This document shows, piece after piece, positions 15 to 57,562 of a stretch of DNA of 64,000 bases. Source of the stretch: Podarcis gaigeae (lineage: Eukaryota); assembly GCA_964106915.2 (NCBI GenBank), contig OZ066918.1. One strand, given 5' to 3'. The position numbers and the translations under genes were made by a program. The notes beneath the pieces are model-generated. The model saw only the letters and a list, made by a program, of their open reading frames with translations, searched no databases and was not told the origin of the DNA. Every line of letters begins with the position of its first letter. The first letter of the stretch is position 1.

Positions 15-524
15 TGTCAGGCTTCGGGGAATCGGCTTCCTCCCCCCGTGGCAGTAGATAAGAAGACCAAAGAAAGGAACGTCTTACCAGTTAGAAACGT
101 TAATAATCACAGTGAGAGAACAAAGAACATATATCCTAGAAATGGTGATGCTCCCAATAAAGAATCACACCCCCTTCTGTCCCTATTAATCTACGTCACT
201 CCTACGTCTTGTAATCTGAATTTGTACCATCTGCGCTTTCTGTGCTTTCTGTTCTGAGACTTTCTGAGCTCTTCTTGACCTTGGGCTGAGAGGAGGAATG
301 CTGTCCAGAGACTGTGAGTCTGTTAACCCTCTCTCTTCCAGTGTTCCTTCACCTAGCTGTTCCCCATCCAGTATTTCCCAGCTTCTGCCTTCTGAACTAT
401 GCCCCTCTGCAAACCACTGTTCCAAATTGATACTGTCCTCCTGCTCCTGGGAAGATTCAGGATCCGAATCAGGAGCAGGGGGAGGCTCCCACCATTCCTC
501 CTCAGTGCATCCTTCCTCAGCACA
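15..524 (-). mobile_element. Solo LTR (Gypsy-like) with acidic/basic U3 reading frame
   Basis: TG..CA termini (tgtca at 15, agcaca ending 524). Flanks aggct/aggca match at 4 of 5 bases as a TSD. Minus-strand frame open from the first LTR codon (524) to 186: CAEEGCTEEEWWEPP...PPLSPRSRRAQK. Confidence 0.75.
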
Positions 525-611: not shown

Positions 612-650
<39 letters not shown>

Positions 651-1838
651 TTATTATTTGTACCCCGCCCATCTGGCTGGGTTTCCCCAGCCACTCTGGG
701 CGGCTTCCATAGAAACCAGAAAACACTAAAATATCATACATTAAAAACTTCCCTGAACAGGGCTGCCTTACGATGTCTTCTGAATGTCAGGTAGTTGTTT
801 ATCGTTTTGACATCTGATGGGAGGGCGTTCCACAGGGCGGGCGCCACTACCGAAAAGGCCCTCTGCCTGGTTCCCTGTAGCTTTGCTTCTCGCAATGAGG
901 GAACCGCCAGAAGGCCCTCGGCGCTGGACCTCAGCGTCCAGGCAGAACGATGGGGGTGGAGACGCTCCTTCAGGTATACTGGGCCGAGGCCGTTTAGGGC
1001 TTTAAAGGTCAACACCAACACTTTGAATTGTGCTCGGAAACGTACTGGGAGCCAATGTAGGTCTTTCAAGACCGGTGTTATGTGGTCTCGGCGGCCACCC
1101 CCAGTCACCAGTCTAGCTGCCGCATTCTGGATTAGCTGTAGTTTCCGAGTCACCTTCAAAGGTAGCCCCACGTAGAGCGCATTGCAGTAGTCCAAGCGGG
1201 AGATAACTAGAGCCTGCACCACTCTGGCGAGACAGTCCGCGGGCAGGTAGGGTCTCAGCCTGCGTACCAGGTGGAGTTGGTAGACAGCTGCCCTGGATAC
1301 AGAATTGACCTGCGCCTCCATGGACAGCTGTGAGTCCAAAATGACTCCCAGGCTACGCACCTGGTCCTTCAGGGGCACAGTTACCCTATTCAGGACCAGG
1401 GAGTCCTCCACACCAGCCCGCCCCCTGTCCCCCCAAAACAGTACTTCTGTCTTGTCAGGATTCAGCTTCAATCCATTAGCTGCCATCCATCCTCCAACCG
1501 CCTCCAGGCACTCACACAGGACCTTCACCGCCTTCACTGGTTCTGATTTGAAAGAGAGGTAGAGCTGGGTATCATCTGCATATTGATGGACACCCAGTCC
1601 AAACCCCCTGATGATTTCTCCCAGCGGCTTCATATAGATGTTAAAAAGCATGGGGGGGAGGACGGAACCCTGAGGTACCCCACAAGTGAGGGCCCAAGGG
1701 TCTGAACACTCATCCCCCACCACCACTTTCTGAACACGGCCCAGGAGGAAGGAGCGAAACCACTGTATAACAGTGCCCCCAGCTCCCAACCCCTCTAGAC
1801 GGTCCAGAAGGATGTTATGGTCGAGAAGGATGTTATGG
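612..1838 (-). mobile_element. L2-clade LINE, 5'-truncated, young; (ATT)n tail
   Basis: RT motifs GVPQGSVL and YADDTQLY, plus L2-type C-terminus LHWLPVRFRAQFKVLVLTFKAL. Microsatellite tail at 612-650. Inserted between inverted arms (555-582 and 1839-1865) of a small palindromic element. Confidence 0.93.
734..1830 (-). CDS. L2 ORF2 reverse transcriptase C-terminal portion, uninterrupted frame; no native start (the ORF-track N-terminus is flanking DNA)
   Basis: ORF track 734..1981; RT similarity begins at DHNILLDRL near 1830. Confidence 0.8.
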
Positions 1839-2664
1839 CAAACTACAGCTCCCAGGATTCTCCATGACTGTTTATGAGGTATAATAGTGCTTTGAATGTA
1901 TGGTGTGAATGTGATTGTGAGGTCACAATGCTGTGCTTTTCTGTCTTTGCCTCTGGCATCAGTGGGTGTGGGGAAAAACACTGGTTGGTGGTGTTATCTG
2001 GTAGCAGCTGGTTGTCTTTTATAATATCTGGTATTACCCTTAGAAGCACAGGATCATGGGGATGGGAGGAAAATGAAGGCCAATTAGCCCAGCTAAAGAT
2101 TACTTTCATCATCATAATGTTAATCATTCAGGGGGCGGGGGCGGGTGGAGAACAAAGAGGCGTTATCCCAAGGGAATGATCCACTGTGGTGTAGCAGATG
2201 GCATGCAGGATTTGGGTGATGTATGTTCAGATCTCTCTAGGTTTGAAGTGCACCGGGTAGCCAGGACCAAATTGTTAACTCATCTCAATCAACTTTGAAA
2301 TGGGTATTTATTATGGGATCCCCATGCACGCAAGATTTTTTGGAGTCTCCACGTAATGTCATCATCAAAATGCCAGCCCCTGTATATTGTTTTTCCTTGT
2401 TTACCTTCTCCCAGCTCTCTCCATCCCACATACATGGTCCTCTGCTACAGCACCATTCCTCCAGAGCAGCAAGCTGTGTGGTTGATGGGGATAACTGGGG
2501 GTGGGGAGAGCAGCCAGGTTGTTCTCCAGTTTAATATCTGATGTGTAAAAGAACTTTGGGGGCTGCAGTGTTTGCCTTGCATTTGAATCAAACACCATTA
2601 ACTGCCAAAATCCGTATTTCTGAGCAGAGGAATGTAAAACTCAGTGAAACACCATCTCTGTAAA

Positions 2665-3268
2665 GTCTGTGCCCAGGGCAGCTGTCTACCAGTTCCATTT
2701 GGTACTCTGTTTGAAACCACTGTGCTGCCAGAGTGGTACATGTGCTGGCTATCTCCCGCTTGGACTACTGCAATGTGCTCTGCATGGGGTGACCTTGGAA
2801 GGTGACTCAGAAACGACAATCCACAATGTGGCAGCTAGACTGGTGACTGGGAGCAGCCGCCAGGACCATATAGCACCGGTCCTAAAGAATTGACACTGGC
2901 TCTCAGTACATTTCCAACACAATTCAAAGTGTTGGTACTGACATCTAAAGCCCTAAATGGCCTCAGTCTTGTATAACTGAAGGAGCATCTCCACCACCAT
3001 CGTTCATCCCAGACACTGAGGTCCAGCTCCAATGGCCTTCCCAGTAGTGGCACCCACCCTGTAGAACACCCTCCCATCAGATGTCAAGGAAATAAATAGG
3101 TATACAACTTATAGAAGACATCTGAAGGCAGCCCTGTATAGAGAAGTTTTAAATGTTTGATGTTCTATTGTGCTTTTATATTTGTTGGAAGCCGTTCAGA
3201 GTGGCTGGGGCAACCCAGTCAGATGGCCAGGGTACAAATAAAAAAAATATTAATACTATAATTATTAT
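2665..3268 (+). mobile_element. Degraded L2 3' fragment, same family as 612-1838, opposite orientation
   Basis: Translates to RAAVYQFHLV...NVAARLVTGSSRQDHIAPVLKN; 3' UTR cagagtggctggggcaacccagtcagatgg. Confidence 0.88.
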
Positions 3269-5711
3269 TCTGTATTTGGTAACTTTAGTCACTTTTTCAG
3301 ACTGTTGGCTTATTCTGTTAAAATATCCTTCCCTTCTCAACAGACCTTATTTGATATCATCATACAGCCACATCCATTTGTGTTGACCCAACTTTTTATC
3401 AACTGGCAGTGAGTTGATGTCATTGCATCAGGTGCAGTGAGATGACATCACTGGAGTATCATCATTGGGTGCCTCCTTGCTTTCTCCTCAGGCATCATCA
3501 ATTTACCACTAGAAGCCTAAAACTTTGCCAATAGAATTGTTTTCCACATTACTCCTAGCTAAATTGACATTACAATGTATTTCCTCCCTTGGTGTATTAA
3601 ATCCAAACGGATGGCTTTCCTGCTTTGCCTGCCTGCTTTGGTGAAGGGAGGAGCTCTTAGGCTGCTTTCTGTTCCTTTCGCTTTAAATCAAAGGCCCAGC
3701 CGAAAATTATTTTATTTATAACAGCAGCGGAGACACCTGCTCCTGACATGTGAGACCATTTGGATGACACAACTGGCGACCAACAATAGTAACAGCACTC
3801 TGGGCTTTCATTAGAAGCCATGTGATGCTGCTGCAGCCTTGCCAAGTCAGACATAATAATTCCACCCACTGAGAAATAAATATTCCCCGGAGAGCAAGTG
3901 AGAGCATGAGAGAGGGAAAGGAGGCTGGCAAAGAGAGATTCTAGTTGTTTACGGGGAAGGAACGGCATCTAAATATCTCTGTGTATTTGTTTCTCTATAT
4001 ACGGTACCTACATCGATGAACTATACAGCCAGATAAGACAAATGTGCTCTCAGTTCCAGTGGTTGTCTGTGTCTCCTGTCTATAAAATCCAGTTCTCTGT
4101 CACATGCCAGAAATACGCGTTTGTGACCAAGAAATGGGCTATGCAGATGGGAGGTATTCTCAGATCACAATGCCCTCCCTTTAATTTCTGTGAGGCAAAA
4201 TAAATGGGACTGCAGTTTGAGGCACCATTGACAGAGGGGTGTAGCTGCCTATGGGTCGCCATGTTTTCCCATATTGCTTCTGTTGCTAGATATAGTGTGT
4301 GTGTTTGGGGGGGGGTGAGTTACGTAGGGCTCCTGACTGTGGCTTTACTATGGAGAAATTGGTTAAAGGGGTATGGGACAGAGCAAGAGAGAACGGTCGC
4401 TTCTCTCCATGCTCAGCCTGAAAATTTAAGAACTCCATGTCACAAATTTAGAGGAAAATTACTCTGAAGAATCCTCAGATCAGCACTTGTTCACACCAAC
4501 ATACCATCAGCATATCTTTCACACCTATGCAATTCACTGCCCACTGCTTCTACAACTCTGTTTCCTTCGGTGCTGGAAAAGAGCTCTGAGACTTAGGCAT
4601 GCGTATGTCCAGGTATCTCACTGGGCTCGGTCCCAGCCATGGCATTATTAGTTTAAGCACAATAGTCCGAGACAACCTATCCATCTTGGTTCTAAAGAGC
4701 TCAGCCAATATTAGCCCCAGACCTTGAAAAACAGTTCAGCTGCCAGTCCAGAGACTGTCGGTCATTCTAGGCATAAATGTTGCTCATTTTCGTTGCCGCT
4801 GCCACTAAATCCTCTAGTGCTTCACAGTGTCAATTATTACTTAAGCCGTTTGTATCCTGCTTTCCCAACTATTCCTTCAAGGGCAATCTGGTCATTAGCA
4901 TAGTAGGGTATGTGGCATTCTCATGAGTGGACAGGTAATTTACAGGAAAAGCTGTAAGTGTTAGGCTTCAAAGTGATGCCTCTTAGTGCCCATCAGTTGA
5001 CTGGCACTGAGGGACATTGGCTATGAAGTCTGTTTGCAAATAGTTTCAACACAACCACTTGCAACTGGACTCGACTTGCTGACGGACACACCTTCGCCTG
5101 TCTTACACCCAGTATCACGTACAATGTCAGGGATGGGGCAGACAGGTGTGGCTTGGGGGAAATAGCCTCACAGGCCAAATTAAGACCTCTCATTAGGCCC
5201 AAAGGTTGCCCATCGTGGGTTACAGAGACTTGAGAGACAGGTAAGGTTATTGATGAGTGCTTGACCCTAAGTAAAATGAACAATTTTATCTTTGTCCATT
5301 CTTTTTCAAATTAGCAACTGGCCTCCTGACAGTTCTAACAGCACTGGTTTTCTTTCATACTCTGATTAGTAGATCTACAGTGCACTTCTAGGGAAGAAAG
5401 AGAACTGCACAAATAAAGAAAAATGCAATTGCTAACCCCCTTGTGAGTATCTGTACATGGAGGTTACTGCAGTGGAAATGAGAATAAGTATGTCTACGAA
5501 TCGAAAGACAAAACAAATGAACAACTAAATTAGATCTGAGGAAATTGTCTGCAGCAAACAGTATAATGCCTCTTACTCTTAATGCCTTGTTTGTTATTGC
5601 CGCTTTGATTTCTATTAATCTGTTATGTTGAATAGTTTAACAAACATTTTGAATCATGGATTGCCTACAAATAGTGTTCACCACATTTGCTGTTAGTGGT
5701 AACCTCTGGAT

Positions 5712-8090: not shown

Positions 8091-9532
8091 TGGCTTTCCT
8101 GCACCAATTAAAGTAGCAAACCAAAGTTTGAAGTCTAAAAGAAGAAAGATAAAGTCCTTGCCACTACTGCTACCCAGTAAGTCTCCCTGAAATTTGTGAA
8201 TAAATCCCCTGCCCCCAAGGAGCTGGGTGGCAAATTTGTGGGGAAGATTTTTACTGTGCGCTGAGCTTTTGGAGGTTTAGGTGAGGTACCTCCACATTCC
8301 CATCAGCTGTAGGGCTGGAATAAATCGTGCAAAACTGTATCCACTGCAGAATGATTTTTGCAGTGTGTAGTTCTGCTGGATTTGCATGATTTATGGAGAT
8401 TGCAGGGTCCAGCTTTGCAGAGTGCAGGGTTACGCCAGTGATTAAGCTTGATTATTTTATATTAGCATCAAGGACACCTGACCCTGTGCTTTACCCAGTA
8501 CTGAGCATTCCCCCCCCCCCCCCGCCTTCCTTAAGAGCTGGTTTATTTCCTTAACTCTGGCAACATGAGGGAGCGATGCCAGCTTTCCCCCCAGGAGAGA
8601 TGGTTGGAATCCACTTGTCAGTGGCACTCGCTTATCTTTAAGATTTCTGCCTTGGGACCTTACTTTGCCAAGCGACTCTTGGAAGCTCAAGCAAATCCAA
8701 ACAAGAACTAAAAATAATGCATCACCAGGGACGCATTAGTATCTGAGCGCCACGCTTCATTCCCTCTGAGGAATCATTGGGGATTTAAATGATCAGTGCT
8801 GCATGGTCACAAGTGGCTGGAACTTTAATACTTGAGATAAATGGCTCCCCAGTTCTAGTGAGGATCTTGCTTAGTGAATGATGCGCCTCCTTCAGCAGTC
8901 CAATGGAATGAAACAAAATTGGACTAATATATACAACAGAGAGGGTCTGATAAGTGCCTTGGTTAACTCTGATTCTGGTGCTAATGAGATTGGTTCCAGG
9001 CTTTCCATGATACCTTTTACTTGCTTCGTAAACACTGAAGGCAGCAATGCAACTGCAACATAGCTGCTGCTTCGATCCTTTCCATGTTGGAAACAATGTC
9101 GGCTTGTTTTTGAAAGGGAATCCTTGGCTTTTCCATTCAGATAAGTGGGATGTCGCTGCAATCTTAAATACAGCTACCTGGATACTGCTCTTTGAACACA
9201 CTGGAAGTCATTCTGCGTAGATGTGTATAAGGTTGTGCTGTTGCATCTTTAACTTCAGCTGGATGTAAGTTTTACAGGACTAAAGAAACAGGGATAGCTG
9301 AAAATACATTTTTTCCATTAATTTTTTTTATAAAACAAACATACCATATCTCATGGATCACAGCAAAACATGGGAATTTATTACAATTTTTGTCCACTTA
9401 GAAAATTATGTCTATCTGTGTGTGTTTCTTGCAGTGAGACCAGGGCTGCTTTTTCCAGCCGGAAGTTGCCGGAACTTAGTTCCGGCACCTCTTAGATGGG
9501 TGCCATTGCCTTTATAAGAGAGCAAGGGGGTA

Positions 9533-9758
9533 CAGTGGTACCTCAGGTTAAGCACTTAATTCTTTCCGGAGGTCCGTACTTAACCTGAAACTGTTCTTAA
9601 CCTGAAGCACCACTTTAGCTAATGGGGCCTCCCGCTGCTGCTGTGCTGCCGGAGCATGATTTCTGTTCTCATCCTGAAGCAAAGTTCTTAACCTGAAGCA
9701 CTATTTCTGGGTTAGCGGAGTCTGTAACCTGAAGCGTATGTAACCTGAGGTACCACTG
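9533..9758. mobile_element. Tc1/mariner (Tigger-like) MITE nested in an older MITE (about 9441-9805)
   Basis: CAGTGGTACCTC..GAGGTACCACTG TIRs with TA on the left. Confidence 0.8.
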
Positions 9759-11589: not shown

Positions 11590-12431
11590 ATTTGACTCAG
11601 GTCTTCAGAACATGACCATGCCCTTCCATCAGGTGTTACTGTTTCAGCCTGGCCTTCACCTGGATATGCCCCCCTGGCCCTCTTATAGGGTAGTGGGGCA
11701 GGCATAGCTTTGCACAAGCGAATGGGAAATCCACCTCAGGGGGCTGGCCCTGAGCTGTCTGTTCACACTGAGGATGGTGTCTCCATGTCCTAGGTGATGG
11801 AGGAGGTGACAGCGTTGACCTGGAATCAGACTGGGAGGTGAATGAATCCTTGTCAGCTGAAGCTGGTGAAGGCAGAGGATCTGGTGGTGCAGTAGTCTGG
11901 TGCTGGGAGTGGAGTGGGTGGGACTGGCAAGGACTGATGATGTGACAACCTACGGGGTCCCTCTTCAGGACTGGGCTCCTCACCCCTGAAAGCTCAAATT
12001 ACTCTCAAGGTTCCAACCCAAACCTGATGGGTCCCTCTAGAAGTGTCACTGGGTTCTTCCCAAGACTCCCTCTGCCCCTCATCCCAATTGGTCCAGTCTC
12101 TCCAGGCCACTCTTTTGGGACTTAGGACAGAGCAGGTGTCTCAGCAACATTCTGAGGCCTCATGAAGGTTGGCTGGTCTGGAACTGTTGTCAAACCCTCT
12201 GCTATGGAGGGGCTATCTCTATCTGAAATGGTTGTTGCCCAGTTCTGCAGCCATTAGCTCCTTATAGCCTGGGCGTAGTGAAGACTGCATTGGAGCAGTG
12301 CTATATGAGACGAGGACTCAGATAAAGTCACATCCTTTGGCTTGGGTAGTCCTGAGGTAGGGGATAATGGTTCCTCCTCTTCTGAGTCTTCCTCTGAGCA
12401 AGAGCGAGAATTGAGGCTAGAGGACATGAGA
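11590..12431 (-). mobile_element. Degraded LTR with acidic / SPRT-R reading-frame remnants
   Basis: Minus strand starts tctcATGtcc (TGTCATG-like) and reads SEEDSEEEEP, later LSPPPSPRTWR. TATAAG near 11685. Left boundary uncertain. Confidence 0.5.
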
Positions 12432-14996: not shown

Positions 14997-16382
14997 AAGA
15001 AACTGGTTTGAGCAGTTTTGCAGTTCCTTCTAACTACAATCTTGCTAACACAAACTCACAGGTTCAGTTCGAACCCAGAGGCATCGTACAAAGCAGCCCC
15101 TCAGTCCCATATCAATACATATTCTTTTCCATGATTTTTTTGGTGAACTTTGTAAAATGTGGAAGAGTGCAATCTGATGGGGAGTTGTGATCTGATTTGC
15201 AAGCAAGCATGGGACCATTGAATGGGGTTGGTCTGCTGTAAATAAATTCCTCTTTCATCCCTATTTCAATGGATTTAAATGCAAGTAATTTCTGCTGGCA
15301 GTTATATTGGTGTTGAGGTGGAACCACGTTCTTCCGGTCCTGAATGCTTATGACTGCTAATCTACCCTGGTTTTATTGGGATTCAAAAATGTGTTTGCTG
15401 TGGAAAACAGGGATGCAGTTCTGGAATCATAATTCAAAAACACAGTGCTACTGGGAGCGGGGAGGGGGGGAATATTTGTCTCCTTAAAGTTTAAAAACCA
15501 CTAAACTCTCTCATTTGTTTAAAGAAGAACTTACTAGTCTGAAACCTTTAAGTCTATTGCCAGCCTACAGCAATATTCCTTTAGCTGGGTTATGAAAACC
15601 TGAAGAAAGAAAGAGAAAAAAAAGGAATGGCAAAAAAATTAATTAAACATAGATTAAAAACATAATTACATATTTTATTAATTGCACTTTAAAGATGCCC
15701 TTGAGAAGAATCCAGAGGGCATTAGTCAACAGTAAAAGGCTTAAATTTAAATTTCCTTGCTAGTCATTTTTAAATCTCATTTGAATTTAGTTTTAGTTTT
15801 GTTATTTATTTTGGATTAAATTTGTATCATTATCACACCGTAGCAGAAAATGGTTACACCTTTTATTTAAAGTGACTGATCATTAGAAATGCATTTGCAA
15901 TTCACTGTAATAACACTGATTAAAATGAATTCATTTGGAATTAATGGGGCTGCCACAGAGAGTGCTCATCCTAGCTAGAAAAGCAGCACAGCTCAAATCA
16001 ACATGAGTTAAAAATAAGAGGCAATTCTCAGCTTGTTAATAAACTTTCCAAAAAGAAATATAGCTGGTTGACTTCGCTTCTTGTGGGTCACATGCCAGCC
16101 TAAAGCAGTGAATGGTAGCCTAATTCACACATGCCCTCAACTGTGTGGTTCTGCTTGCCCAAAACCATGTGGTATGTTTACAATGGTGACCTGCTTCAGT
16201 CACACCAAACTTTCCACGCCAGCGTTGCTCCTCCCTGGTCACTTCTGACTTTGGTGAGATAACATTCTGAGTGATAACAGAATGGAACACAGTAGTTAGC
16301 AAAACACAGTTTGGTGGCCTTGACCTGAAGCCTTTGCCTCATCAGAGTGGTTTCATGGATATACAGGCCATACTGGGATGTA

Positions 16383-16624
16383 CAGTGGTACCTCAGGTTA
16401 CAGACGCTTTGGGTTACAGACGCTTTGGGTTACAAACTCCGCTAACCAGGAAGTGGTTGCTCCAGGTTAAGAACTTTGCCCCAGGATAAAAATGGAAATC
16501 GCATGCCAGCGGCGCAGCAGCAGTGGGAGGCCCCATTAGCGAAAGCACACCTCAGGTTAAGAACCGTTTCAGGTTAAGAACGGACCTCTGGAATGAATGA
16601 AATTCTTAACCCAAGGCACCACTG
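16383..16624. mobile_element. Tigger-like MITE
   Basis: TA-CAGTGGTACCTC..CACCACTG-TA. Confidence 0.8.
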
Positions 16625-17344
16625 TATCAGGATATAAAAGCAGAGAGATTGTGGGTGGGACAGGCAAGGCCATGGAAAGCTTTGAAGGTTAGAACAAGGA
16701 GCTGGTGCTGGAGCTGGGAGCCAGAGTGCCGGCTTGGCCCTGCGACCTGGGTTGCCCAAGGTTGTGGGTGCCGTGAAGCATGCATGGTCCTGGCACCGAA
16801 ATTTGTGGGTGCCCAGCCTCTTCATGGGGATTTCGTTGGTGCTCGGGCACCCAGGGGTCCAGAAAGTTGGCACCCATGACTAGGAGTGGATCAGAGCCCA
16901 GTGGAAGGATTTTCTGAGAAGCATTATGTAAGGATGCTTGAGGAGTTTGACTTTTACAAAATGTGATGCAAATTGCATACCCCTCCAACATTTTGGGAGG
17001 GCAATTCTGGGAACCACCACCCCGCTGACCATGTCACTCACCCCCTCCCTGCTGCCAATCCCTCCCTCGCCTGCCCGCTTGCCCCCTCCCTCCCTCCCCC
17101 TCCCTCCCCCCTCCTACCTTTGTGCACTGACCTCCTCCTTTGCAGCTCTTATTTTCCTTCTCACATTGAAATATTGCCCTTCAATGAGGCCAAACTTAGA
17201 TTCACAAAGTTTTAAGGGGTATGCATACCCCTGCGTACCCCCAGAAAAAAAGCACTGGGTACACTCAATAAATATATCCTAACCTAAATGGCCAATGTTG
17301 AAGGTTCCCAGAATTCCTTGGGGAAACAAATTCTTTGTTTATGC

Positions 17345-30827: not shown

Positions 30828-31190
30828 TAAAGCCCTTTAAAGCCCTAAATGTCTTTGGCCCAGTATACCTGAAGGAGCGTCTCCACCCCCATTGTTCAGC
30901 CCAGACACTGAGCTCCAGCGCCTAGGGCCTTCTGGCGGTTCCTTCACTGCAAGAAGTGAGGTTACAGCGAACCAGGCAGAGGGGCTTCTTGGCAGTGGCG
31001 CCCGCCCTGTGGAACGCCCTCCCACCAGTTGTCAAGGAAATAAACAACTATCTGACTTTTAGAAGACATCTGAAGACAGCCCTGTTTAGGGAAGTTTTTG
31101 ATGTTTGATGTTTTATAGTGTTTTTAATATTATGTTGGGAGCTGCCCAGTGCGGCTGGGGTATAAATGGGTGGGGTATAAATATATTATT
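30828..31190 (+). mobile_element. L2 3' fragment
   Basis: FKALN..GPVYLKERLHPH and L2 3' UTR. Confidence 0.88.
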
Positions 31191-31821
31191 ATATATTTTA
31201 TGCAACTCCTTTCCAGTTGGGATCAGACAAGGCCTCCCTCCCTATTGAACCTCTGGCACCTACCAAAGAATTTGTTATTTCAGTAGGCTTCTAGACCGAA
31301 TTCTGATTTTATAGTTTTACCCAAGTTTTATCGTTTTGTACTGAGTGGTATTGTAAGGTATTGTATACCCCTTAGAGACTATTATAATTAAGCAGTATAC
31401 CCATTTTCACAACAAACAAACAAACAAACAAATAAAGATACTGGCTTTTTAACCCCCAAACTTCCTCTCTAGGTCACATCAAAATCCAAGCATATGGAAA
31501 GAATTCTTGACACCCCACTCCAAAAAACAAAACAAAAAAACAACCCCTAACATGCCTGCCATCCTCAGCCCCCAAACATATAACTTCCTTATTTTCCCAA
31601 ATTGTTTACATTTGTAGCAGAATATTCTTTCAGGAACTCTTACAATTGCAATGGACATTGCCCAGCAGCAACCTAGACGAGAACTTAGAAGTGCAGGGTA
31701 GCAGTGCTGCTCTTCAAAGAGTCATTGGGCTGAGCCCAACAACCAGGTCACCCCAAATCTGGGTCTCTGAAACCTGGTCTCTCAGAGACTACAAGCCCCT
31801 TCCCCAGGGATTCTTATTCTA

Positions 31822-32973
31822 TGTAGCTGGATGTCAGGAAGTAGCAAGGCTCTGAAAAGTGTGTGACAGAGGCAGAAGACAAGGGGAGTGACCAAGGAGA
31901 GGTGACCAGTGATTGATGGGGTGTGATGCCATCTTCAAGGCAGGTGCCAGGGTTGGATGGAGAGTCAGGGCAGTCTGAGATGAAGGAGGGCATGCAGGAT
32001 GTGGCGGAGGAAGAAGTGATGTTTCAGGAGAGGAACGGGTTGGTAGATTCCCCACTTTCCCCTGCTCCACTGTTGCCTAGAACCCAGAGGGGCTTGAAAA
32101 GGGAAGCGCCGTGATAACTTCAGTGCAGGAGAGGTCTCAGGTTCTGGGCACGCAACCTATCAGAGGTATACAGTGGTACCTCGGGTTAAGAACTTAATTC
32201 ATTCTGGAGGTCCGTTCTTAACCTGAAACTGTTCTTTTAAAAAAATATATATTATTGAGTTTTCATATTTAATTACATCTCATTACACAAATCTATAACA
32301 TAAAGCATTGCTCAGGCAGAGCATAGACTTCCTTCCCTCCCACTTTCTGACTTCCAGACATCTTTTACTAAATTCTCACATTTCTATAACCACTTTTTTA
32401 CCTTAAGACTTCTTTTTTTTAATAAAAAAATACCTCCTTATGTGTAAATCAGTTCCTTATTTTCGCATTTCAATTCAAACCTACAAACGTTTTCAAATGT
32501 TTACAATTTTCTTTCATATAAAATATAAATTTGCTCCAGTCCTTTTGAAACAGTTCATCTTGCCGATTCCGGATCTGAAACTGTTCTTAACCTGAGGTAC
32601 CACTTTAGCTAAAGGGGCCTCCCACTGCCACCACACGATTTCTGTTCTCATCCTGAAGCAAAGTTCTTAACCCAAGGTACTATTTCTGGGTTAGCAGAGT
32701 CTGTAACCTGAAGCGTCTGTAACCTGAAGCTTCTGTAACCCAAAGTACCACTGTATAAAGAGGGAAAGGGGTCCCAGTTGCTGCAACTGCTCCATATGGC
32801 CCAGACTGCTCAGAGGCTAGAAGCATGTGAATGTGTGTATCTGGAGCACCTTGGGAGCTGCTGCAAGTGTTTCTCTTGCCAATAAAGGGTTAACTATCTG
32901 ATGTGTGGCTTACCTTATCTGGGATTGGCTGTGACACTGGCTTGCCAACAAAGGCAGGATACTTGTCCTGACA
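31822..32973 (+). mobile_element. Solo LTR with acidic/basic U3 frame; nested MITE and L1
   Basis: TG..CA termini; perfect 5-bp TSD ttcta (31817-21 / 32974-78); AATAAA at 32881; frame EEEVMFQ..SPLSPAPLLPRTQRGLKRE. Confidence 0.75.
32171..32753. mobile_element. Tigger-like MITE (TA TSD) containing an L1 3' fragment (about 32236-32575)
   Basis: CAGTGGTACC..GTACCACTG flanked by TA; same family as 9533-9758. Confidence 0.8.
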
Positions 32974-50721: not shown

Positions 50722-50990
50722 GTCAGGCAGAGGGCCTTCTCGGTGGTGGCAACCACCCTGTGGAATGCCCTCCCACCAGATGTCAAGGAAATAAACAACT
50801 ACCTGACTTTTATAAGACATCTGAAGGCAGTCCTGTTTAGGGAAGTTTTTTTTAATGTTTGAAGTTTTATTTTAGTTTATATTTTGTTGGGAGCCACCCA
50901 GAGAGTCTGGGAAAAAACAGCCAGATGGGCGGGCTATAAATAATAACAAATTATTATTATTATTATTAGTAGTAGTAGTAGTAGTATTCA
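50722..50990 (+). mobile_element. L2 3' fragment
   Basis: aggcagagggccttctcggtggtgg..ccagatgtcaaggaaataaacaactac; (ATT)/(AGT) tail. Confidence 0.85.
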
Positions 50991-56970: not shown

Positions 56971-57562
56971 TGCCAGGGAGCAGGTCGGCAATAACTCACA
57001 TGCTTCAGTGAAGTTGACTCTTTATTCAAAGAAACTAAACAGCTCCAGCCTAGTAAGCACAGCAACGCTTCCCAGTAGATCTTGCCCCAATGAGGAAGTT
57101 GTGAGGACTGAAGGTCCCCACATTCCCACAGCTCTCTAGGTCTCCTCCTCTCATGGGTCCTTCCCAAACAAAATGAGACTCAGATATCTTGTCTGTTTTT
57201 GCTCTGCCCTCTTCATACCGTGTCTGGTTCTGGGAGATGGGACTGGGGGGGGCAGGAGTTGGTCGCAGCAGGAGAGGGAGACTTCCTGGCTTCTTCAGCA
57301 GCTTGACTCATCTCTGCCTCTTGAGCCCACTCCTCTCCAGCCTCTGATTCTGAACTGCTCTCTGCCACAGCCTCTTCCTGCTCACTAAACCCTGTTACCT
57401 TTTCAGCTTCCAACACCTCCTCCTCCCAGTCTTCTCCCTCTTGTCCCTCTGACCACTCACCGTTGTCCCACCTCTGATCCGCTAGCTCTAAGCCTTCTTC
57501 TATTGGGCTTTCCCCGAGCTGGTGCCTCCTGCCACTCCTCTGAATCCAGCCAGTCCATGACA
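56971..57562 (-). mobile_element. Solo LTR with acidic/basic U3 frame
   Basis: TG..CA termini; perfect 5-bp TSD tctgc (56966-70 / 57563-67); minus-strand AATAAA near 57021; frames MDWLDSEEWQEAP..EDWEEEVLEAE..PSPRTRHGMKRAEQK. Confidence 0.8.

Follow-up and report, generated by a model that had tools for sequence, protein, structure and literature searches.

A conserved open frame in solo LTRs of the lizard Podarcis gaigeae is very probably the integrase tail of Tf1/sushi-type chromoviruses

Coding sequence within the U3 region of a long terminal repeat (LTR) is known from Nef and from the Sag protein of MMTV, each of which has its own start codon and is expressed from spliced RNA. Among plant chromoviruses, CRM group A and the Beta elements Bingo1-4/7 have an open reading frame that extends into the 3' LTR, and the LTR-encoded integrase C-terminus of CRM is considered a putative targeting domain (as set out in portions of PMC3059260 and PMC3605345). 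The elements described here from the genome of Podarcis gaigeae resemble these plant elements in that the C-terminal end of the integrase appears to be encoded in the 3' LTR (same portions of PMC3059260 and PMC3605345). In CRM group A, however, a CR motif replaces the chromodomain, whereas the lizard elements keep their chromodomain, upstream of the polypurine tract, and have the tail in addition. Unlike Nef and Sag, the lizard frame has no conserved start of its own and, in full-length relatives, is continuous with pol.

There are further likenesses to the Tf1/sushi (V-clade) chromoviruses of vertebrates: a single gag-pol frame and an integrase with SH3 and chromodomain, both seen in the young family treated below; LTR ends of the form TGTYANR...CNTNACA, as given in part of PMC3601003, with 5-bp target site duplications (TSDs); and a self-priming complement with no tRNA primer site, as given in part of PMC6317226. 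Fish Tf1/sushi relatives read only some 13-20 codons into the LTR, whereas pol of these lizard families continues for 100-140 codons into U3. Running of pol into the 3' LTR is already known from plant chromoviruses, and the squamate case is a variant of that architecture. No description of it for squamates, nor of any retrotransposon integrase with an HMGN-like motif, was found in a literature search with most subscription journals outside its scope, and the accessible part of PMC11011659 makes no mention of a pol tail in the LTR. The named Podarcis muralis Pol entries P0006 and P0211 already include the tail, without comment.

The window, that is the whole stretch of 64,000 nucleotides analysed, had been the subject of a preliminary description in which four diverged solo LTRs were seen to share a frame of the same architecture, proposed to be a U3-encoded accessory peptide. 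Its observations have stood up well. The frame of LTR A is unbroken from 524 to 186, with 112 sense codons and a stop, and contains EEWWEP and PPLSPRSRR. The succession of acidic tract, SP-[RK]-[TS]-R-R and basic end is present in all four LTRs, and the other motifs named were likewise found (PPPSPRTWR at 11797, minus strand; PLLPRTQRG at 32073, plus strand; VPSPRTRHG at 57237, minus strand; also EEWQEAP and D*W). All four are solo LTRs belonging to repeat families, with 5-bp target duplications, and their nucleotide likeness is indeed slight, since no match among them was obtained at E<1e-4 when the window was compared with itself by BLAST. What the frame represents is another matter: it is very likely, from sequence comparison, the C-terminal tail of the Gag-Pol (integrase) of Tf1/sushi-type chromoviruses and not a separate accessory gene.

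Table 1. Positions of the four LTRs in the window and of the features lying within them.
Feature	Position	Strand	Remarks
Solo LTR, family A	15..524	-	3' terminus CCTGACA; flanks TGCCT/AGCCT, 4/5 matching
Open frame in LTR A, 112 codons and stop	186..524	-	Interpreted as U3-encoded integrase tail
SPRSRR motif, SP-[RK]-[TS]-R-R	270..287	-	Common to families A-E, with differing synonymous codons
RRRS	198..209	-	Family A counterpart of RRSxRL (families C, D and young family), without the final RL
Old solo LTR, family B	11590..12431	-	3' end as in the preliminary description
Solo LTR, family C	31832..32936	+	TSD CTGGA/CTGGC
MITE, TA-flanked, with terminal inverted repeats	32171..32753		Inserted in LTR C where the tail frame ends
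Solo LTR, family D	56971..57562	-	Exact TSD GCAGA

The window copy of LTR A lacks about 10 bases at its 5' edge by comparison with other family A copies. Its frame consists of an acidic, Trp-containing tract (23 D/E and 2 K/R in 79 amino acids) followed by the basic end (9 K/R in 33). In LTR B the frame starts (V)M, continues with an acidic tract and reaches SPRTWR at 11797, but is broken in the window copy. LTR C was correctly recognised, but its limits, previously placed at 31822-32973, required correction (Table 1), and a MITE, of which further copies lie near 9531-9748 and 16381-16627, was found inside it; the tail frame, from 31833 to about 32168, is broken by stops in this copy. That of LTR D, at about 57561-57136, has frameshifts and stops in the window copy and is intact at another locus, L063. 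LTR C is enclosed by a 42-base TGT...ACA remnant (31822-31831 and 32937-32973) with TTCTA on each side, which is either a nested, deleted element or due to chance. Just upstream of LTR A lies a LINE fragment (612-1993, minus strand) with a reverse transcriptase frame (PF00078) and an (ATT)n tail; copies of it are also present at 2660-3269, 30834-31201 and 50724-50988.

A first survey gave at least 1873, 17, 132 and 4864 candidates for families A, B, C and D, respectively, these being lower bounds and not copy numbers; the best 40, 17, 40 and 40 were scored. LTR copies start with TGTCAGG or TGTCATG, finish with sequences like CCTGACA and are flanked by 5-bp target duplications. Where both termini could be read, the two repeats match exactly in 8 of 13 A copies other than that of the window and in 5 of 12 D copies. 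Copies within families A, C and D are 76-89% identical to one another, so that the families are old. LTR base 2 is where the frame opens in all the families. The C16 pair, its members 21 kb apart, was rejected as a segmental duplication.

A single open frame of this length is weak evidence; the family data are strong. The window contains 53 stop-free frames of at least 110 codons, and on shuffling of the LTR a frame of at least 112 codons arose somewhere in 165 of 2000 trials and in the given frame in 2 of 2000. Across the families, the tail frame is the forward frame that has no family-wide stops in A (34 copies), D (30) and C (20), save for one column in C at a CpG-type hypermutable site, whereas the other two forward frames over the same stretch have 3-7 each. 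The mean number of stops per copy in the tail frame is 0.56 in A, 2.17 in D and 1.60 in C, compared with 3.6-6.4 in the other frames; a wholly intact tail frame was seen in 4 of 21 A copies and 1 of 17 D copies. The CpG-type decay proposed to explain many of the disrupted codons is real, but the biggest group of in-frame stops in D (27 of 65) is at Trp codons.

Relatives with the internal region of the element still attached were reached by way of a family D pattern search, which led to locus L117, where an SH3-chromodomain remnant and a polypurine tract precede an LTR of the same type. An ERV origin, suggested by the 5-bp TSD and by a Lys-type primer site near L117, was rejected: the site lies in another inserted LTR, and the sequence upstream is SH3-chromodomain. 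A search with the L117 remnant gave 3198 candidates, 150 of which were scored. In elements of the L117 type, the pol frame leaves the chromodomain, passes GGG[DG]V and enters the LTR, whose first T is the third base of a codon, and the phase of pol at the LTR edge is the same as that of the window frames. One young copy has a frame of 1451 amino acids in which Pfam domains follow the order gag-PR-RT-RH-IN-SH3-chromodomain, then the tail, ending in the LTR. Among 12 copies picked for long frames, nine end 115-117 codons inside the 3' LTR, and these nine have LTR pairs of 99% identity (or lower through indels) and 5-bp TSDs; of the remaining three, one has an internal deletion and two are shifted at a G run. 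Three of the nine go back to a single duplicated insertion, and a fourth duplicate of it is out of phase at the G run, indicating that such shifts arise after insertion or in assembly. A large share of the full-length chromovirus and copia copies, and of segmental duplicates, is found on a single contig of 29.5 Mb (G000:C32), as on a W chromosome.

Counting more broadly, 51 chromodomain loci yielded 43 junctions, 22 in phase and 12 and 9 shifted, with eight loci lacking a junction by the rule used; the 43 include duplicates, many of the 21 out of phase are duplicated or decayed, and L178, counted among the shifted, keeps phase in its chromodomain half. The young family has 11 in-phase junctions among 19, and in seven of the eight that are shifted the G run differs in length by one base. 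Family E, a sister of A with about 70% DNA identity where BLAST aligns the two, also has chromodomain and SH3, the chromodomain being in phase at five of seven junctions (L175, L178, L223, L255 and L262). Six pattern searches for a polypurine-tract junction before A, C or D LTRs found other families only and no direct parent, which is the main gap in the identification. The expectation that parent elements would disclose where the frame begins was thus borne out in part, by young full-length relatives that run pol through the polypurine tract into the LTR but not by direct parents of A, C and D, and the link of families A-D to chromoviruses is made through sister families, shared phase and shared motif. 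On this footing, translation of Gag-Pol would carry on across the polypurine tract and end in U3 of the 3' LTR, the part inside the LTR most likely being the last 110-140 or so amino acids of the integrase, and families A-D would once have had full-length chromovirus parents with read-through pol.

The same genomic evidence is compatible with a tail that is made within Gag-Pol and then cut off by the protease of the element as a separate phosphoprotein, as is MLV p12, a cleaved and phosphorylated nucleosome tether according to part of PMC6021111. A long, weakly constrained acidic linker between chromodomain and conserved basic end would suit such processing, but the sequence between chromodomain and LTR varies in both length and content from family to family, and we consider cleavage unlikely.

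Some family E LTRs (L177 and L180, and also upstream in L174 and L176) begin with a 43-45-base duplicate of the LTR start and polypurine tract, in frame in L180, which suggests that duplications spanning the tract lengthen both U3 and the tail. Comparison of L139, L130 and L283 with families A and D shows that the EEWW-type acidic module either precedes the polypurine tract or lies in U3, according to the family, so it seems that the boundary of the LTR has shifted along the coding tail.

The position of the frame within the LTR bears on whether it could be an independent U3 gene of the Nef or Sag kind, translated from a start of its own on spliced or read-through RNA. The tail stop of young copies falls at LTR base 349-355, just before a TATA-like box at 360. 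The self-priming complement, which matches sequence following the 5' LTR, lies at about base 390 (10 bases in four of five young full-length copies, seven in the fifth), and these copies have no tRNA primer site. Since box and complement both lie past the tail stop, the predicted transcript start is downstream of the frame, and the frame should then occur in RNA only at the 3' end of the genomic transcript. In a solo or 5' LTR, the frame would lie upstream of the promoter and be silent, and the solo copies would be fossils. ATG stands as second codon in 21 of 30 D copies, and also in B-like copies and the young family, as an independent gene would have it, and the frame is conserved and selected; in A, C and E, however, that codon is AGG, so that there is no conserved start, and the ATG upstream of the window A copy is in unrelated flank. 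As frame and pol are in phase in full-length relatives, with no stop between them, an independent gene is very improbable. The separate accessory peptide of the preliminary description is accordingly not supported: no start is conserved, the frame ends before the TATA-like box, and what survives upstream is the integrase chromodomain, mostly in phase.

Contigs from four runs, presumed to be of RNA, cover a relative of the young family and contain no joint into the tail; they cannot show expression or spliced RNA. Contigs of three of the four runs skip about 950 bases of pol at L190:2116-3072, without canonical splice ends, possibly representing a deleted, non-autonomous variant.

The frame diverged between families under purifying selection. 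For A against its sister family E pN/pS is 0.35, compared with 1.10 and 1.11 in the shifted frames (25 non-independent pairs). Over an ungapped motif block of 14 codons the values are 0.32 (C-D), 0.44 (A-D) and 0.37 (A-C), with 1.10-1.43 in shifted frames; the block is anchored on the motif, which favours conservation, the anchor being present in 23 of 34 A, 12 of 20 C and 19 of 30 D copies, and its pair counts are not independent. Young subfamilies give 0.45-0.82. Constraint on the acidic part is weak (0.49-0.66, compared with 0.16-0.35 for SH3/chromodomain). Among shared variants the odds ratio for a synonymous excess is 2.1 in A (p 0.014) and 2.2 in C (p 0.007); the excess was not significant in D or the young family, and two D control frames also gave p<0.05. 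Private substitutions have no codon-position bias, as befits solo copies decaying neutrally after insertion. Shared tail indels, whose counts are sparse, are multiples of three in 3 of 4 cases in A, 5 of 13 in D and 1 of 3 in C.

Within the motif, codons switch between families, with AGC or TCN for Ser and AGR or CGN for Arg. A DNA element would not switch in this way, and the switches, with the pN/pS values, counter the alternative, raised earlier, that the motif is conserved as DNA. Non-functional read-through, in which a purine-rich U3 lacks stops by chance and the motif is a DNA element, might draw on the weak amino-acid constraint of the acidic part and on the fish relatives, by which a long tail is not needed by all chromoviruses, but it is the least probable reading and already largely refuted by those codon switches, by a third-position excess and low pN/pS confined to the tail frame, and by the family-wide stops that close the other frames.

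Tails of the integrase thus identified begin acidic, with 15-28 D/E in 68-105 residues, and then turn basic. RRSARL ends the tail in 18 of 19 young-family copies and RRSxRL occurs in C and D; A ends RRRSDVD and several families end in a CW-basic sequence, so RRSxRL is not universal. A Pfam search of the tail gave no match, and protein searches with it returned three short unnamed entries and one gene model. The latter, P0005 (UniRef; a Podarcis muralis SPARC model), has at residues 23-61 a 39-residue piece, 70% identical to the family A tail, that opens the model; an annotation error is the probable cause, though a solo LTR may have become an exon. In proteins of Rhineura (an amphisbaenian) and Vipera (a viper), the chromodomain is followed by a long tail, acidic and then basic. 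The tails of fish elements are short, RRSPRL closes a frog element, and RRSS[AR]R is found at the end of some fungal-type integrases, ahead of the tract. Among the matches listed for distant relatives, a noisy set of the 150 best, mostly chimeric gene models, 35 have a recognisable junction; R[RK]SxR occurs in one of these (0.34 expected by shuffling) and SP[RK][TS]R[RK] in none. Copia elements at L118-L119 (G000:C32:14.33-14.34 Mb), of an unrelated superfamily, have similar basic motifs, RRS-x-R-x-T-K-G-x-P-P-K-R, between integrase and reverse transcriptase.

The acidic part is probably a flexible linker, fitting the weak constraint there, and the basic end a chromatin-tethering or nuclear-import motif, so that the integrase tail would tether the integration complex to chromatin, beside the chromodomain. 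In HMGN and Dsup, RRSAR or RRSSR binds the nucleosome acidic patch, and modelling suggests that phosphorylation of the Ser blocks binding (from part of PMC12487698). The young-family RRSARL resembles their RRSARLSA over six residues, a likeness that is absent as such in A and several other families and is probably convergent. SP-x-R and RRSxRL might together bind the H2A-H2B acidic patch in the manner of HMGN, or act as a bipartite nuclear localisation signal (NLS), with phosphorylation as a switch. We would put the nucleosome tether at about an even chance. Family D has two basic clusters about 10 residues apart, which presumably also fit a bipartite NLS adjoining a CDK-type site. Short, basic, phosphorylatable tethers of the pre-integration complex have been described in MLV p12 and foamy virus Gag (parts of PMC6021111 and PMC9040877); those lie in Gag, whereas the lizard tail is on the integrase.

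Identification as an integrase tail accounts for a conserved frame carried by solo LTRs that rank among the most abundant in the Podarcis gaigeae genome, and shows protein evidence tying solo LTRs to chromovirus parents where DNA likeness has faded. For annotators it is a warning that such frames enter gene models, as in the SPARC model P0005. It points to a putative second targeting module on a vertebrate retrotransposon integrase, concerned with chromatin access and site choice. More speculatively, squamate chromoviruses might possess a two-handed integrase, with the chromodomain as one hand and, as the other, a U3-encoded tail whose RRSxRL sits, as in HMGN, on the acidic patch under a neighbouring CDK-type switch. 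We hold this only tentatively and think it somewhat doubtful; were it true, thousands of solo LTRs would have dispersed preformed acidic/basic coding modules across lizard genomes.
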